DNA from: Escherichia phage vB_EcoM_CUA3
Sequence record: PP410321
Length of the DNA: 64,000 nt
Reading direction: 5' to 3' (one strand)
Shown: one piece after another, positions 14,138 through 60,000 of the stretch
Numbering within the stretch: the first letter of the stretch is position 1
Layout of the letters: every line of letters starts with the position of its first letter
Position numbers and translations under genes: made by a program
Notes under the pieces: generated by a model
The model's database searches: none
Seen by the model: only the letters and a program-made list of their open reading frames with translations
Told to the model about the DNA's origin: nothing

Positions 14138-14724
14138 ATAATTAANCNNNNNNNNNNNNNNNNNNNNNNNNNNNNNNNNNNNNNNNNNNNNNNNNNNNNN
14201 NNNNNNNNNNNNNNNNNNNNNNNNNNNNNNNNNNNNNNNNNNNNNNNNNNNNNNNNNNNNNNNNNNNNNNNNNNNNNNNNNNNNNNNNNNNNNNNNNNNN
14301 NNNNNNNNNNNNNNNNNNNNNNNNNNNNNNNNNNNNNNNNNNNNNNNNNNNNNNNNNNNNNNNNNNNNNNNNNNNNNNNNNNNNNNNNNNNNNNNNNNNN
14401 NNNNNNNNNNNNNNNNNNNNNNNNNNNNNNNNNNNNNNNNNNNNNNNNNNNNNNNNNNNNNNNNNNNNNNNNNNNNNNNNNNNNNNNNNNNNNNNNNNNN
14501 NNNNNNNNNNNNNNNNNNNNNNNNNNNNNNNNNNNNNNNNNNNNNNNNNNNNNNNNNNNNNNNNNNNNNNNNNNNNNNNNNNNNNNNNNNNNNNNNNNNN
14601 NNNNNNNNNNNNNNNNNNNNNNNNNNNNNNNNNNNNNNNNNNNNNNNNNNNNNNNNNNNNNNNNNNNNNNNNNNNNNNNNNNNNNNNNNNNNNNNNNNNN
14701 NNNNNNNNNNNNNNNNNNNNNNNA

Positions 14725-15340: not shown

Positions 15341-15541
15341 ATGGGTAGTATTTTTTATCAAATCTGGAAATTGGCAGAAAAGAAAGACAAGAAAATGATG
15401 TTAGGTTTTCTTGCGCTAGACGTATTCCTTTGGAATCTTTTAGTAGTCCCTGTAGCCGCTAGCCAAGGGGTAATTTTACCAGCGGTTACAATGGAACATG
15501 TAATGAGCATTATAGGATTCTTTACCGGAATCCCTGCTTAA
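15341..15541 (+). CDS. hypothetical small hydrophobic protein on the plus strand
   Basis: 66-aa ORF with strong AGGAGG SD 5 nt upstream of ATG; hydrophobic; late-promoter-like AATAAATA about 22 nt upstream; sits in the divergent gap between 56 and 61. Confidence 0.35.
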   Translation: MGSIFYQIWKLAEKKDKKMMLGFLALDVFLWNLLVVPVAASQGVILPAVTMEHVMSIIGFFTGIPA

Positions 15542-16566
15542 ATCTTGGAATATTTTGAAAGTCTCATTTTTGCCATTAAACCTTGGGCTATATTAGCTTT
15601 CATATATGCCAATATATCATTTATATCAGCTTTATCTTTCATAACCATATCATTTATATCTTTAGAAGGCCATGGAGCCTTGTCCCAGAATAGAACCCTT
15701 TCGCCGGCATCAACTAGGCGTTGCATACGCTTAATTGTGTCAGGATGACGGGGTTCATTATCCATTACCCACGCTCTTGTTTCTTTACATGGAACTACTG
15801 ATAAGTCTAATGACCCGCCAGTAATTGCTATGGCATTAGGAACAAATAAAGAATCAATAGGCCCTTCCATAACCCATACCAATTGACGTTCGTCAACCGT
15901 ATCCATTCCATATATTTTTGTAGCTTGGTCATGAGCTTTTATTGTAATATATTTTTGTGGAGCATCTTTACGTAAGGCGCGACCCTGGAAACTTTCTATT
16001 TGTTTATCCTTATTGAAAATAGGAATAACCAAACGTGGTTCAGGCATTTCTTTAGAATAGGTTCCTGGATTCACTGAGTTAACCAATGCCGGCCATTCTT
16101 TAGTAAACCATAGTCGATTCCACTTGTTTTCAGGAATGCAACGCAACGTTACATATTTGATAATAGGATGGTCTTTCGGCATTCTATCTAATCGTTCACA
16201 GAAATTAAGCTTTTCGATGACCGGCATCTTAGCTTTAATTTTTTCAGATATCTCCACCTTAGGTGCAGCTTGTCTCCCGAACGATTGCTCTTTATGTTTC
16301 TCAAGAATATATTCCCGATATAAATCAGGCTCATATTCGTATAGATATTTCTTAATTCCTGCTGAATAGTCGCAGTTAAAACAATGCAACATAATGGAAC
16401 CATCATTGGCCGGATAAGCCCAAAAACGAGCTTTGTTCTCATCTTTTTGTGAGTCACCGCACACACGGCAACGACAGTTTAATTTAAAATCACTACCGGT
16501 TACTTGTCTGAATTTAGGTTGGTAATTCAAGGCACGTACAGCAAATTCTTTATCGACATATGACAT
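15538..16566 (-). CDS. 61: DNA primase
   Basis: 342-aa ORF; N-terminal zinc ribbon CRCRVCGDS...CFNC and TOPRIM-like region; length as T4 gp61. Confidence 0.9.
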   Translation of the reverse strand: MSYVDKEFAVRALNYQPKFRQVTGSDFKLNCRCRVCGDSQKDENKARFWAYPANDGSIMLHCFNCDYSAGIKKYLYEYEPDLYREYILEKHKEQSFGRQAAPKVEISEKIKAKMPVIEKLNFCERLDRMPKDHPIIKYVTLRCIPENKWNRLWFTKEWPALVNSVNPGTYSKEMPEPRLVIPIFNKDKQIESFQGRALRKDAPQKYITIKAHDQATKIYGMDTVDERQLVWVMEGPIDSLFVPNAIAITGGSLDLSVVPCKETRAWVMDNEPRHPDTIKRMQRLVDAGERVLFWDKAPWPSKDINDMVMKDKADINDILAYMKANIAQGLMAKMRLSKYSKI

Positions 16567-16604
16567 TATTTTTCCTTGGGCTCTAAATTAATAGAGCCAT
16601 TATA

Positions 16605-16766
16605 TCATTCGTTTTCGGATTTTTCTTTACGCTTTTTAGATGGGATTTGTTCAGGCCCTTTGTTGACGACTGCGCCTGAGGTAGTTCCGGAGGCAATATT
16701 AGATGGATTTCCACCTGCATCACCTGCGACCATATCTTCGTTCATAACTTCTTTAAAAGATTTCAT
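16605..16766 (-). CDS. hypothetical small protein with late-type promoter
   Basis: 53-aa ORF below the track cutoff (MKSFKEVMNED...); exact TATAAATA on the minus strand at 16788-16795, about 22 nt upstream of ATG. Confidence 0.35.
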   Translation of the reverse strand: MKSFKEVMNEDMVAGDAGGNPSNIASGTTSGAVVNKGPEQIPSKKRKEKSENE

Positions 16767-16782
16767 AGGCTCCTGGCCTTAT

Positions 16783-16974
16783 TTATATTACGAAAATAGC
16801 TTTATCACCATTCACATCAGTGACTTCATAAGTATCTTCGTGGTACAGTGGAATAATCCAAGTCACACCATCACCAGCGATAACATGGATAGCTTCTTGG
16901 TCTTTTGATACGATTTCATATTCTTCGAATAATTCGAATACAGAAATCTTAGAGCCCGTACACATTGCAGTCAT
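16783..16974 (-). CDS. hypothetical protein
   Basis: 63-aa ORF in the 61.x interval. Confidence 0.35.
   Translation of the reverse strand: MTAMCTGSKISVFELFEEYEIVSKDQEAIHVIAGDGVTWIIPLYHEDTYEVTDVNGDKAIFVI
16788..16795 (-). promoter_or_regulatory. late-type promoter motif (TATAAATA)
   Basis: exact T4 late consensus on the minus strand upstream of the 53-aa ORF. Confidence 0.4.
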
Positions 16975-16975
16975 A

Positions 16976-17458
16976 TCAACCTCGGTTCATAAAGGCATTA
17001 AAAATCTGGTCGTCGATTGAATAAACCGGAGCTTCCAGAATTTTCAACAGGCTGTTTTTGATATACTTGCTAGGGATATCCATATTAACAGCATCATTCA
17101 ATTCATTGTTCGGGTTGATGTCTTTAAATTCGAACCTTTCAAACTCAACCTTGTCGGGAAAGCCATCAGCGAAAAAATAAACCAATTGGTGTATTGTATT
17201 GCATGAGAATAATTTAGACTTCACTGCAATAAGTTCTTGCCAATGGTTTAATTCTTTGTTAAGAAGTTTATGAGCAAACGTAATTCTATTATCACTATCA
17301 ACAAGAAAATAACCCAGGTATTGGNGGTCGTCGCTCCAAAACATCCTGTATGCCTGGGCATTTGGGTTTTTGCAACGGAGTTTTTTGATAATCAAATTTC
17401 TGTTAATCTTATTCACCTGTAACCTCTTTAACGATATTTTTGTTATCGAAATTAGCAT
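16976..17458 (-). CDS. hypothetical protein (start uncertain)
   Basis: track ORF begins with GTG and overlaps sp; internal ATG starts are possible; contains an N. Confidence 0.35.
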   Translation of the reverse strand: MLISITKISLKRLQVNKINRNLIIKKLRCKNPNAQAYRMFWSDDXQYLGYFLVDSDNRITFAHKLLNKELNHWQELIAVKSKLFSCNTIHQLVYFFADGFPDKVEFERFEFKDINPNNELNDAVNMDIPSKYIKNSLLKILEAPVYSIDDQIFNAFMNRG

Positions 17459-17702
17459 CGCAGTACAGAACATAGTTATACTGCATAACACCACTGGAAG
17501 CCAATTGGTCGGATACTTCTTTAACCATATCAGGACGGTCGCGTTTAGTGATGTTCATGATATCAGCATAAATCTGATGTTCAACTGATTCTTGGTCTGC
17601 AGTCATTGACCATTCACAAAGGTCTTTATCCAATCCGGCTGTAACTGGAGCCGTACCACATGATGCTACTGTAAGGATTGCTGCGATTAATAACTTTTTC
17701 AT
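17409..17702 (-). CDS. sp: Spackle periplasmic protein (superinfection exclusion, lysozyme inhibitor)
   Basis: true start MKKLLIAAILTVASCG (signal peptide, lipobox-like VASC); mature region DKDLCEWSMTADQ...VMQYNYVLYCD matches T4 Sp as recalled. Confidence 0.7.
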   Translation of the reverse strand: MKKLLIAAILTVASCGTAPVTAGLDKDLCEWSMTADQESVEHQIYADIMNITKRDRPDMVKEVSDQLASSGVMQYNYVLYCDANFDNKNIVKEVTGE

Positions 17703-17730
17703 TTTTAACTCCTCATTAGTTGATAGGTCT

Positions 17731-17760
17731 ATAGTATCACTACCATAGACCGATGTAAAC
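17731..17760 (-). promoter_or_regulatory. early-type promoter upstream of sp
   Basis: minus-sense GTTTAC, 18 nt, TACTAT, then AGACCTATCAAC; GGTCTAT/ATAGACC inverted repeat. Confidence 0.6.
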
Positions 17761-17761
17761 A

Positions 17762-18001
17762 CTATTTTAAAGAATCTTCTAAATAAATTTTACGGAATTT
17801 ACGTTTCGTCTGACGAATCTGACGTTTAGTAGGCTTCACAGGAAATTCGAAGAACTCTACGTATTCCTGTTCATAATCATTATGACCCACTGAAAGAACC
17901 AGTTCCCAGCTGCTTACGGTGCGTTGGATAAACATATTATGCTTACCAAAAGATTTATTCCAAAAAGAACTAGGAGTTGGCTTCATTAGTACAATATTCA
18001 T
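17762..18001 (-). CDS. hypothetical protein
   Basis: 79-aa ORF, ATG start. Confidence 0.4.
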   Translation of the reverse strand: MNIVLMKPTPSSFWNKSFGKHNMFIQRTVSSWELVLSVGHNDYEQEYVEFFEFPVKPTKRQIRQTKRKFRKIYLEDSLK

Positions 18002-18748: not shown

Positions 18749-20186
18749 AAAATTTGATAGATGCTGCTAAATCATCTAAATCGCTTCTATTAACACGCGA
18801 CTGGCGATTGACCTCTGCTTGGCGGTTCATTTCACCTGAGGCCTCACGAACGGTGTTCACTGGACCTGGGTTAGAATCGTCTTCAACTTCATACCAACGC
18901 TGATTTCCTTTCTTAACACCAATCTTAAATTTGTTGTAGTAGCTCTTATCACCATAACGAGATTTAAGCTGCTTAATCATCTGCATACCCATCTGAGCAA
19001 ACTCTTCTGTCTCGACCACACCTAACATGAAGTCTGCAGTATGTGCAATACCAAAGGATTCAGCGATATCAGCCATATCGATTTCGGCGGCAACGTTCGC
19101 ACCACGAGTAGTCTGGGCTGCAGTCCACAACAATAATTTCTTCTCTACTGCAAGACCACGTAATTCTTCGGCAACCATCTTAATCAATCCATAACTGTTT
19201 TCAGAGAAAACTTTCGTACGGGATGAAGCACAGATAGCCAAGTAGTCGACGATAACGACCTGTGGAACAAAGTTTTGTTTGAGCTTGTATTCATTTAATA
19301 ATGCACGGAATGTATCGGCATTAGCACCACCGGTAGGATACTGTTTAATCTTTAAACGACCTAAAGTAGCAGTTGAACGCCACTTATCCATCTTAGCTTT
19401 ATATTCAGGCCATGAGACGTGACCATCATCAATATCATCCAGTGATACATCCAGAAGGTTAGCATCGATACGCTTAGCACATACTTCCTCTGCCATCTCC
19501 ATGGAGATATAAAGAACATCATAACCGGATTGAAGGTAATCAGCAGCCAATGAACACAGTCCAAGAGACTTACCTACGTTTGTTCCTGCCAACAATACGT
19601 TTTCAGTACCAAACTCTGCGCCACCCTTAGTAATCTTGTTCAGAATATTAAGACGGAATGGAACCTTACGTGCTTTATCAGAATAACTTTTAAAACGTTC
19701 TTCATAGTCATCCATCCAGTCATGGCCTAATTCAGAATCGAAACAAATCGATAATGCATCACGCATGATATCTGGAATAGCACCGATACCTGGGAGTTTT
19801 CTATTTTGTTGCTCAACCGGAAGGTCGGCATTAGTTTGAATTTCAATAATTTTTGAAGTGGCATTATACATCGCTGCCTTCTGAACGTATTTCTCTGTCT
19901 CTTTAACCAACCATTCTTGGTCTTCAGGGCCAGCGTTCAGTGAACTTAAAAGCTCTTTAGCTCCTTGGTGTTCGACTTCTGAAAGGGTGCTGTTATCTAA
20001 TGCAATACTCAAAGCATTTTTAGAAGGCACCGCATTATATTCATTGACGTGTTTTTTGATTTCTTTGAAAAGGGTCTTTGCCGGACCCTGGTCAAAATAA
20101 GAATCATTCATATAAGGCCAGACCTTAGTGAAATAATCACTATTGCCTAGCAGTTGAGCCAAAATAGTTTCTACCACTTCCACCAC
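18747..20186 (-). CDS. 41: replicative DNA helicase (DnaB-like)
   Basis: 479-aa ORF; Walker A GTNVGKS; N-terminus MVEVVE aligns with T4 gp41; start codon is GTG. Confidence 0.9.
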   Translation of the reverse strand: MVEVVETILAQLLGNSDYFTKVWPYMNDSYFDQGPAKTLFKEIKKHVNEYNAVPSKNALSIALDNSTLSEVEHQGAKELLSSLNAGPEDQEWLVKETEKYVQKAAMYNATSKIIEIQTNADLPVEQQNRKLPGIGAIPDIMRDALSICFDSELGHDWMDDYEERFKSYSDKARKVPFRLNILNKITKGGAEFGTENVLLAGTNVGKSLGLCSLAADYLQSGYDVLYISMEMAEEVCAKRIDANLLDVSLDDIDDGHVSWPEYKAKMDKWRSTATLGRLKIKQYPTGGANADTFRALLNEYKLKQNFVPQVVIVDYLAICASSRTKVFSENSYGLIKMVAEELRGLAVEKKLLLWTAAQTTRGANVAAEIDMADIAESFGIAHTADFMLGVVETEEFAQMGMQMIKQLKSRYGDKSYYNKFKIGVKKGNQRWYEVEDDSNPGPVNTVREASGEMNRQAEVNRQSRVNRSDLDDLAASIKF

Positions 20187-51989: not shown

Positions 51990-52373
51990 TTATTCTAACG
52001 TTAACAAATACTTAGTTTGGTAAAAGACACCAGTGATGTCGTCCAAAGTCGATTGGATGGCCTTAGGAAGATTTTTGTAGATTTTATCAGACGCTTTAAT
52101 AAGTTCATCAAGAAAATCTATGGGGTCTTTAGGCAGTTCTGAAGCGGATGGGAGTGATGCTTTATATTCTTTGCCACTAAATCCTAGATACTGCTCACTG
52201 AACTGGTCTAGTGGTCCTTGAACTTCTGTATAATAGAAGTCATATGCTTTGTGTCTTGCATAGCTTTTGGTTTCCAAATGGGCTGACTTAAAATAGGCTA
52301 AAGAAACCAACAGCCAACCAATATAAGAATCCACTTCAGTCCCTCGACTAAGTACGAAATCATTGAATTTCAT
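51990..52373 (-). CDS. hypothetical protein
   Basis: 127-aa ORF, ATG start. Confidence 0.4.
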   Translation of the reverse strand: MKFNDFVLSRGTEVDSYIGWLLVSLAYFKSAHLETKSYARHKAYDFYYTEVQGPLDQFSEQYLGFSGKEYKASLPSASELPKDPIDFLDELIKASDKIYKNLPKAIQSTLDDITGVFYQTKYLLTLE

Positions 52374-52653
52374 TATCTACCTTCATTAGTTTCGCGTATC
52401 GTTCTCCGATAGCCCGACCTTCAATCGAGCAAGACTCTATTGTATTGCAATTTGAAATTTTCCAAGAAGCAGTTACATAAGCCCAGTAGTCTTCGGAGGC
52501 CTTTACACTAGGTTTACTCATTTGCGCATAAACTGGCATCGCACTACTAGCAAAGGCATCCATCAATTTAGGATCGGTTTTGTTTGCTAGTGAAGATGTC
52601 GGGCTTAAACATCCAATCATAAGGATACAAGCCACTGTACGGAAAATACCCAT
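52360..52653 (-). CDS. putative secreted protein/lipoprotein
   Basis: 97-aa ORF; signal peptide MGIFRTVACILMIGC. Confidence 0.4.
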   Translation of the reverse strand: MGIFRTVACILMIGCLSPTSSLANKTDPKLMDAFASSAMPVYAQMSKPSVKASEDYWAYVTASWKISNCNTIESCSIEGRAIGERYAKLMKVDNEIQ

Positions 52654-52746
52654 ACAAAAGTCCTTTGTTATTTTATACGAATTTGCCTTTCGGCCTTAAC
52701 CGATAGCGATTACCAAAAGCTAAAGCTCTACGGTTAGTATTACTAT

Positions 52747-53025
52747 TTATAGCTTTTTAAGCTTACGACAATACGAATAGAACACGTCGTTAAAATTATA
52801 TTCAACCCAATTCCTCTGTATAGGCGAGGTAATGGAAAGCATATAATGGGCTTTAATTAAATCCATTCCATTTTTATTAGGACATTCTTTATTATTAGCA
52901 TTATACGTCGCTGCTACAACTTCTATCTCTCTTTTGTAAGCCGCATCATCCATGATGGGCGAAAGAACAATATAAGAGATGGCCACAGCGAACGCTAGAA
53001 TTAAAATCTTTGAATTTAGGTCCAT
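52747..53025 (-). CDS. hypothetical membrane/secreted protein
   Basis: 92-aa ORF with N-terminal hydrophobic segment. Confidence 0.4.
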   Translation of the reverse strand: MDLNSKILILAFAVAISYIVLSPIMDDAAYKREIEVVAATYNANNKECPNKNGMDLIKAHYMLSITSPIQRNWVEYNFNDVFYSYCRKLKKL

Positions 53026-59480: not shown

Positions 59481-59969
59481 TTATCTATAAGCGGCCCAAG
59501 TGCCGGTTTTAAAGGTAGAGATAACTCGCTTAGCTCGGTTAGGGGTTTGCTTGTACCAACGAGACTGGGCCAGGTTAACTGCTGCATCGTCCCAACGTTT
59601 TTGCTGAAGCATACGCAGAGAGTTAGTGAACCCTGCTACACCCGCTTCACCCATTTGGAAGACCATATTAATCAATGCACAACGACGAACTTCGTCCAGC
59701 ACATCATAAACAGGTTTCAATTTAGGATTACGCAATATAGCTCTACGAGCATTTTCCACTGAACGATTAAAGAGTTGTTCAGCCTCAGCCATAGTAATAC
59801 GACCATTGCAAACTCGACCCATAAGTTTGTCAAGTTCAGCACGAGCAACATCTTTAGATGGGTTCTTGGTAACTAACTGACCGATACCAATAGTCCAATA
59901 ACCTTCAGTATCTTTATAAAGATTTAAATCAAGACCTTCGTCTTGACGTAACATATCAAAAATATCCAT
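59481..59969 (-). CDS. e: lysozyme (endolysin, T4 e family)
   Basis: 162-aa ORF collinear with T4 lysozyme ([13 protein letters not shown]...[13 protein letters not shown], catalytic Glu11/Asp20 context). Confidence 0.9.
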
Positions 59970-60000
59970 AATTACCTCCTGAGTATAGGAGGTATTTATA

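Follow-up and report, generated by a model that had tools for sequence, protein, structure and literature searches.

Why is a 53-residue open reading frame (ORF), set among the early replication genes of a T4-type phage, preceded by a perfect late-promoter box, and what might its product do late in infection? The question is raised by a stretch of 64,000 nucleotides from Escherichia phage vB_EcoM_CUA3 (sequence record PP410321), referred to here as the window, in which an earlier note had pointed out an ORF immediately upstream of primase with an exact TATAAATA before it, and had taken it for an unannotated late gene of the kind represented by T4 soc. That observation is confirmed, and part of its interpretation is supported. 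The ORF proves to be gene 61.1, its product is homologous to an N-terminal segment of gp23, the major capsid protein, and its first residues resemble the capsid targeting sequence (CTS) of T4 internal proteins. The reading favored here, to which a probability of roughly 45% is given, is that gp61.1 would be a peptide made late from a promoter of the lineage's own, targeted to the prohead, processed by the prohead protease and capable of gp23-like contacts.

Gene 61.1 and the box in front of it

The window and Escherichia phage JS10 (Dhakavirus, Tevenvirinae) are collinear, with the same coordinates and about 96% identity, and the JS10 record labels an ORF of identical coordinates gene 61.1, encoding "gp61.1 hypothetical protein". 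The gene had been wrongly considered unannotated, as both JS10 and T4 annotate it as 61.1 and Nolan et al. 2006 (PMC1524935) list it among the conserved ORFs, one of the few that are conserved in T4-like genomes without a function. The product, MKSFKEVMNEDMVAGDAGGNPSNIASGTTSGAVVNKGPEQIPSKKRKEKSENE, has 53 aa and contains K7, S6, E6, G6 and N5, for which the earlier label of Gly/Ser/Lys-rich is fair; at full length its net charge is zero and its pI 6.2. It matches positions 1-53 of the 54-position profile of PHROG 1823, that is, over its full length (E 5e-32), and Pfam and NCBIfam scans of gp61.1, of the long form of the protein described below and of the two upstream ORFs gave no match for 61.1. 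Primase (15538..16566, minus strand) starts 38 nt past the 61.1 stop, in agreement with the position originally described.

The T4 ortholog (18966-19130; NP_049649, UniProt P39228, PHROG 1823) is 72-79% identical, belongs to the same length class, lies likewise directly upstream of primase gene 61 and shares the core EDMVAGD.GG..NI..GTTSGAVVNKGPEQIP.KK. Synteny is kept, with 61.1 downstream of 41, dmd, 61.4, sp and 61.2, and in 24 of the 27 representative loci that were checked the ORF following 61.1 is that of primase; the gene is found beside primase across the T4 superfamily, including the KVP40-type vibriophages. The core has a pN/pS of 0.04-0.19 against relatives with a pS of 0.5-0.77, where synonymous change is near saturation. 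Gene 61.1 is a real, strongly constrained protein-coding gene of this JS10/JS98-like T4-type phage (Dhakavirus). The T4 locus differs in lacking TATAAATA, the intergenic hairpin and the element TGATATAAT described below, in that its 61.1 start is translationally coupled to, and overlaps, the stop region of 61.2, and in that primase begins 2 nt past the 61.1 stop. The features of the gene and its leader are as follows:

16605..16766, minus strand: coding sequence of gene 61.1, 53 aa and a TGA stop (JS10 EpJS10_0028; PHROG 1823)
16780..16787, minus strand: exact T4-type late box TATAAATA at positions -13 to -6, overlapping the stop codon TAA (16783-16785) of the 63-aa ORF before it
16774, minus strand: predicted late transcription start, the A of AGGAG, 6 nt past the box, placed by T4 promoter geometry (PMC2988020)
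16770..16773, minus strand: Shine-Dalgarno core GGAG, 3 nt before the 61.1 ATG
16737..16766, minus strand: codons 1-10, MKSFKEVMNE, CTS-like by resemblance, with a predicted gp21 cut after the invariant Glu10
16647..16736, minus strand: codons 11-40, DMVAGDAGGNPSNIASGTTSGAVVNKGPEQ, homologous, by BLASTP and family profile, to the gp23* N-fist (residues 66-91) and the beginning of the N-arm
16608..16646, minus strand: codons 41-53, IPSKKRKEKSENE, a Lys/Arg-rich mixed-charge tail whose KKRK(R) core is conserved across the family

The first base of the box lies 21 nt before the ATG, where the earlier note had put it at about 22 nt, and its last base is separated from the ATG by 13 nt. In T4 the late promoter consists of the 8-bp box alone, placed roughly a helical turn ahead of the start, which is perfect at 32 of 50 sites and has A at -13 as its commonest variant, and a preponderance of AT has been reported between the box and +1 (Geiduschek and Kassavetis, PMC2988020). 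The late machinery, gp55 and gp45, is annotated in JS10 at coordinates equivalent to those of the window, and TATAAATA precedes JS10 genes 19, 20, 22, 24, 26, 51, uvsW and inh, with 11 boxes in 20 kb of the head and tail region, and also soc and e. A sigma-70 scan for -35 and -10 elements found no convincing early promoter directly before 61.1. The window holds 93 runs of N (6250 bases), such as 14148-14723 and about 57.5-59.4 kb, which mask two soc genes and internal-protein genes among others; the soc late promoter and the CTS sequences were therefore taken from the JS10 record.

Whether such a box stands above chance cannot be read from its frequency, as the whole window contains 3 copies against 6.0 +/- 2.3 expected from shuffles, all 3 on the gene-coding strand; the count alone is not above chance, and it is the comparative conservation before 61.1 that lifts the signal. 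The comparative set comprised 58 loci encoding 61.1 relatives, reduced to 29 lineage representatives. The exact box is present 21-32 nt upstream of the 61.1 start in 6 of the 29, and NATAAATA, in which the first base is free to vary, occupies that place in 11, while neither precedes any of 159 other same-strand ORFs of those loci (Fisher p = 8e-6 for the exact box and 2e-10 for NATAAATA, values uncorrected for shared ancestry and derived from lineages that are not phylogenetically independent). In at least five lineages the box is conserved as NTA-TAA-ATA, the last sense codon of the upstream ORF varying among ATA, GTA, CTA and TTA; where the box is exact, the upstream ORF, its last codon and the spacer differ from lineage to lineage, and the TA that completes the box is retained throughout. 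In the late-promoter lists of Nolan et al. 2006 (PMC1524935) for RB69, RB49, RB43 and Aeh1 none lies directly upstream of 61.1, the RB43 site falling between 61.1 and primase and a 44RR site inside the 5' end of the ORF. A late promoter of 61.1 is likely here as a prediction; it would be lineage-specific, and its box is conserved outside T4.

Early expression must be considered beside it. The window has, just past gene 41 and ahead of the cluster that contains 61.1, a terminator and a sigma-70-like promoter extended by TG, which makes early transcription of 61.1 probable as well, and dual early and late expression is likely in the window. A competing account holds that 61.1 is an ordinary early gene, carried only on the early polycistronic transcript that begins past gene 41 and extends into primase, as it does in T4, and that TATAAATA is an incidental by-product of the A+T-rich junction ATA-TAA-ATA, with little or no late transcription. 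It draws on that upstream promoter and terminator, on the low motif count, on T4, where the box is missing and the 61.1 transcript is classed as early with its protein not detected in a time-resolved proteome (PMC9697503 Table S2), on the atypical 8-nt leader and G+C-rich -5 to -1 segment, and on several lineages that have only xTTAAATA at the site, so that part of the conservation is merely that of TAA-ATA. Against it, at least five lineages retain the full 8-mer across differing upstream ORFs, last codons and spacers, none of the 159 control ORFs carries the box, and the 8-bp box is sufficient for gp55-dependent initiation in T4 (PMC2988020), which makes it unlikely that an exact copy is silent. 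We regard this account as unlikely. The idea of a late gene nested among early genes is thus supported by the exact box, by its conservation in several lineages and by the encoded gp55 and gp45, and is weakened by the early, box-less T4 gene, the upstream early promoter and the atypical leader.

The comparison with soc is an apt one. In JS10, soc lies about 2 kb downstream of 61.1 with its own TATAAATA, within a neighborhood of about 3 kb, and it resembles 61.1 as a small gene on the early-gene strand with the box in front and a product related, or in the case of 61.1 predicted to be related, to the head. The two differ in that they have no sequence relationship and in that the soc leader measures about 25 nt versus 8 nt at 61.1; Soc is a proven structural protein, whereas a head role for gp61.1 is a prediction. 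In JS10 (L001 and L004) two tandem soc genes and two tandem copies of gene 24, for the vertex protein, are present.

Homology to gp23 and a CTS-like N-terminus

The protein to which gp61.1 is related is gp23. By BLASTP its residues 2-46 align with residues 55-99 of JS10 gp23 (38% identity, E 1e-8), and the 61.1 family profile, searched against the whole PDB, has T4 gp23 as its sole match (E 6e-7, residues 59-94). With tblastn, gp61.1 gives a second match in many phage genomes, some of them annotated as major capsid protein. Almost all invariant residues of 61.1 (GD, NIA.G.T.GA and GP) are identical in gp23, and the homologous segment of gp23 spans the gp21 maturation site LTE/AEIGGD, cut after residue 65, together with the N-fist. 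Domain scans miss this similarity because the Pfam Gp23 model starts at residue 86. The vertex protein gp24 was considered as the homologous partner and rejected (E 17).

In mature gp23* the N-fist is an element of 25 residues that touches four subunits in two capsomers and that, with the I-domain linkers, forms the Soc binding site; before expansion, residues 66-105 of gp23 have no order within the shell and probably lie on the scaffold, and the head-length mutations A66D, A94V and G97S fall within them, while after expansion the N-fist segment locks capsomers together (PMC9546572, PMC9958956, PMC7136217). Compared with this junction and N-fist (residues 59-94; PDB 6UZC, 7VS5, 5VF3), gp61.1 shows significant homology that includes the cleavage-site Glu, and differs in being free-standing, in lacking the HK97-fold body and in carrying the KKRK tail. 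The AF2 monomer model of gp61.1 is disordered (pLDDT 61, pTM 0.16), resembling the gp23 N-terminus in unexpanded heads. As a separate observation, the gp61.1 of the Pectobacterium phage PM2-type locus (L025, 1501-1671) has GDGGYDADNIASG, nearer to gp23 (GGDHGYDATNIAAG) than other 61.1 proteins are, a sign that gene conversion may have occurred between the genes of the two proteins.

The prohead protease cuts at the consensus (L/I)-x-E. The second likeness concerns the residues in front of the gp23-like segment, which end in hydrophobic-x-Glu, a site of the type that gp21 cuts. The T4 CTS, MKTYQEFIAE, of about 10 aa, is enough to bring any protein fused to it into the core of the prohead, and one cut by gp21 takes it off (PMC8442874, PMC3012670, PMC9958956). 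The three JS10 internal proteins start with MKTYQEFITE, MKTYNEFIAE and MKTYKEFITE, giving MKTY(Q/N/K)EFI(T/A)E, and short-form 61.1 proteins start with MKTYKEFIKE (T4-type), MKTYKEFVNE (VR5 type), MKTFKDFINE (another lineage) or, in the window, MKSFKEVMNE; the T4 protein itself has MKTFKEFIKE, nearer to the CTS than the window sequence is. Among about 2400 Met-initiated ORFs of the window and 30 loci, an identity to the CTS of at least 6/10 is found only in the internal-protein gene of the window and in 61.1 orthologs, the latter being 6-8/10 identical. The Glu before (D/E)MVAGD, which is Glu10 in the window, is invariant in the family, and the residue two before it is L, I, M or V, a pattern consistent with gp21 cleavage C-terminal to Glu (PMC5694885). 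JS10 uvsW.1 (L004 17215-17442) has the N-terminus MKSFKEVIYEA, identical at 8 of 10 residues to the MKSFKEVMNED of the window gp61.1, which may be a coincidence or a shared leader.

In comparison with T4 internal proteins, gp61.1 has an N-terminus of about 10 residues that resembles their MKTY.EFI.E type and ends in Glu, with a single predicted gp21 cut. At 43 aa in its predicted mature form it is much the smaller; it is also net neutral where they are basic and highly conserved where they are hypervariable. Its gene adjoins primase, outside the internal-protein loci, and its packaging is a prediction.

The 61.1 family as a whole forms 56 clusters at 50% identity, the members being either short (50-70 aa) or long (120-250 aa), with one exception of 624 aa. 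The long form corresponds to PHROG 2086, and a comparison of its N-terminal domain with the gp23 propeptide found no similarity. In RB69 (L065 3818-4284; RB69 17317-17783) the long form is annotated as an overlapping 92-aa "gp61.1" and a 63-aa ORF032c, where close relatives have one 155-aa protein instead; the split may be genuine, or it may come from a frameshift or from an error in sequencing.

Predicted role of the peptide and its alternatives

From these likenesses a course of events can be proposed. Gene 61.1 would have acquired or kept, in this lineage, its own gp55-type late promoter, and would be expressed both early, by read-through from the promoter that follows gene 41, and as a short late mRNA from about 16774 that covers 61.1 and ends at or past the hairpin at 16579-16598. 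The CTS-like leader would bring gp61.1 to the assembling prohead, where gp21 would cut after Glu10 to leave a mature peptide whose N-terminus is DMVAGDAGGNPSNIASGTTSGAVVNK (T4 counterpart DMVAGDSGGNPENISIGTTSGAVVNK). This N-fist-like peptide would use the same contacts as the gp23 N-terminus, whether it is a minor peptide of the core or interior or competes with, or modulates, the interactions of that N-terminus. Late transcription, packaging, cleavage and role are all steps that we infer from sequence. A wider formulation, which is doubtful, is that T4-type phages encode a free-standing copy of the gp23 cleavage junction and N-fist, delivered by a CTS in the short forms or by a helical propeptide of about 105 aa in the long ones and released by gp21, and that the resulting peptide of about 43 aa acts in capsid maturation, its gene having turned into a dedicated late gene in JS98/JS10-like phages and several other lineages. 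The released peptide might then compete with or replace gp23 N-termini at scaffold contacts, N-fist docking sites or Soc sites.

Several observations weigh against the prohead reading, in addition to the shared ancestry of the lineages and the early class, missing box and undetected product of the T4 gene given above. The predicted late 5' untranslated region of 8 nt is atypical, other JS10 late promoters having 18-60 nt from box to ATG where 61.1 has 13; and positions -5 to -1 are AGGCC rather than A+T-rich, where other JS10 late boxes are followed by A+T-rich sequence, a departure that is not disqualifying because the gene e box of the window also precedes CCTCC. The window leader MKSFKEVMNE is the most degenerate of the family, at 4/10 identity to the T4 CTS and 5/10 to JS10 ipIII, its remaining changes being conservative, and the residue two before Glu10 is Met, not Leu or Ile. 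In many lineages the 61.1 module is the C-terminus of a protein of about 155 aa without an N-terminal CTS. The predicted mature peptide, with K+R = 6, D+E = 6 and a pI of 6.4, is not basic, in contrast to the T4 internal proteins, which are described as highly basic, and gp61.1 is not among the T4 core proteins named in the reviews consulted.

The location of the gene permits a different role, in which gp61.1 would be an anti-defense or host-takeover peptide and no head component, a cytoplasmic decoy that copies the N-terminal segment of gp23 and occupies a host immune sensor or protease recognizing that capsid segment. Capsid proteins do trigger abortive-infection systems, as with the Gol peptide of gp23 and Lit, and 61.1 lies within a counter-defense and exclusion cluster (dmd, 61.4, sp and a 61.2-like ORF with a weak AdfA match), is early in T4 and has a product predicted to be intrinsically disordered and peptide-like. 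The Gol region, however, gp23 residues 93-122, lies outside the homologous segment 59-94, and the core of gp61.1 is near-invariant in phages that infect Escherichia, Klebsiella, Acinetobacter, Aeromonas, Serratia and Erwinia, which points away from variable host sensors and toward a conserved partner in the phage. Such a decoy would also give no role to the CTS-like N-terminus and the invariant Glu, and it is considered improbable.

A further possibility, less probable again, is that gp61.1 is a substrate-mimic regulator of gp21 that imitates the cleavage junction of gp23, hydrophobic-x-Glu and then the N-fist, and competes with gp23 to time the maturation cleavage without being a stable head component. 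The homology does cover the gp23 cleavage site LTE/AEIGGD and its P' side, the P1 Glu is invariant, and JS10 also encodes a separate protease inhibitor, inh, whose presence in T4-type phages indicates that gp21 is regulated. Recognition by gp21 on the P' side is nonetheless unsupported and the conserved KKRK tail is left unexplained; for the rest this proposal overlaps largely with the prohead reading and is inseparable from it by sequence. A decaying, functionless fragment of a gene 23 duplication, to which the restriction of the homology to 36-45 gp23 residues might point, is contradicted by the selection analysis (the low pN/pS with near-saturated synonymous change) and by the constant position beside primase across the T4 superfamily, and can be set aside.

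Surroundings and meaning of the finding

Around 61.1, and at the other copies of the box, the window contains the following:

16599..16607, minus strand: extended -10-like TGATATAAT, a possible promoter of primase gene 61, overlapping the 61.1 stop; T(G/A)ATATAATGG is conserved in many lineages
16579..16598, minus strand: hairpin GGCTCTA-TTAATT-TAGAGCC between 61.1 and gene 61, just before the primase Shine-Dalgarno sequence (RNA dG -11.2 kcal/mol, z -3.1)
16783..16974, minus strand: upstream 63-aa ORF, PHROG 3249, with its stop inside the late box; absent between 61.2 and 61.1 in T4
16976-17416, minus strand: 146-aa 61.2-like ORF with a C-terminus identical to that of T4 gp61.2 (IDDQIFNAFMNRG)
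59993-60000, minus strand: TATAAATA before lysozyme gene e, followed by a CCTCC...GGAGG hairpin at 59969-59992
52744-52751, minus strand: third TATAAATA, overlapping the stop of an ORF at 52747-53025, about 90 nt before rI (52360-52653), the gene for lysis inhibition

The element TGATATAAT was not scored by the -35/-10 scan. Hairpins occur at the position after 61.1 in most lineages, and in L014, L026, L051, L059 and L060 a T-run follows, as in an intrinsic terminator; the arrangement of T(G/A)ATATAATGG and hairpin is widely conserved in T4-like lineages, T4 having neither element. Together with the terminators predicted on both sides of Aeh1 61.1 (Nolan et al. 2006, PMC1524935), this suggests that 61.1 is often a small transcription unit of its own. 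The hairpin may stop upstream transcripts, while those started from the TATAAT would begin inside its 5' arm and may read into primase.

The PHROG 3249 ORF also precedes the long form of 61.1 in RB69- and S16-type loci, with the C-terminus ...GDKAIFVI/D. The match of the 146-aa ORF to Pfam AdfA (anti-DarT factor A) is weak and below the cut-off (E 0.005), and the cluster from gene 41 to gene 61 (dmd, 61.4, sp and the 61.2-like ORF) looks like an anti-defense and exclusion island. At gene e, the 3' arm of the hairpin is the GGAGG ribosome-binding site and would sequester it. It is the arrangement classically known from T4, in which just the late transcripts, whose starts lie within the hairpin, are translated. 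A hairpin of this type at 61.1 (AGGCC-AGGA-GCCT) was tried and rejected, being no better than shuffles (z 0.09).

The gene call in itself is ordinary, 61.1 being already annotated. In the literature searched on gp61.1, the N-fist and the CTS, 61.1 appeared in annotation tables only, and no link of 61.1 to the capsid was found there; the combination of CTS-like leader and N-fist homology in gp61.1 is a new lead for which no precedent was found in the searchable literature. The box before 61.1 is conserved in several T4-like lineages and missing in T4, which may explain why 61.1 has been treated only as an early ORF. The gene is among the few small ORFs conserved in the T4 superfamily that have no assigned function (PMC1524935), and the CTS-like leader, the invariant protease-site Glu and the N-fist copy together make a concrete and cheaply testable hypothesis of a part in head assembly. 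If correct, it would bring a new component into a virus assembly pathway that is among those studied best and, should the peptide prove to be a free-standing N-fist, a previously unrecognized and near-universal small component of the T4 head assembly. In that case there would also be a short peptide of natural origin directed at N-fist or Soc-site contacts, with possible use in T4 capsid engineering.

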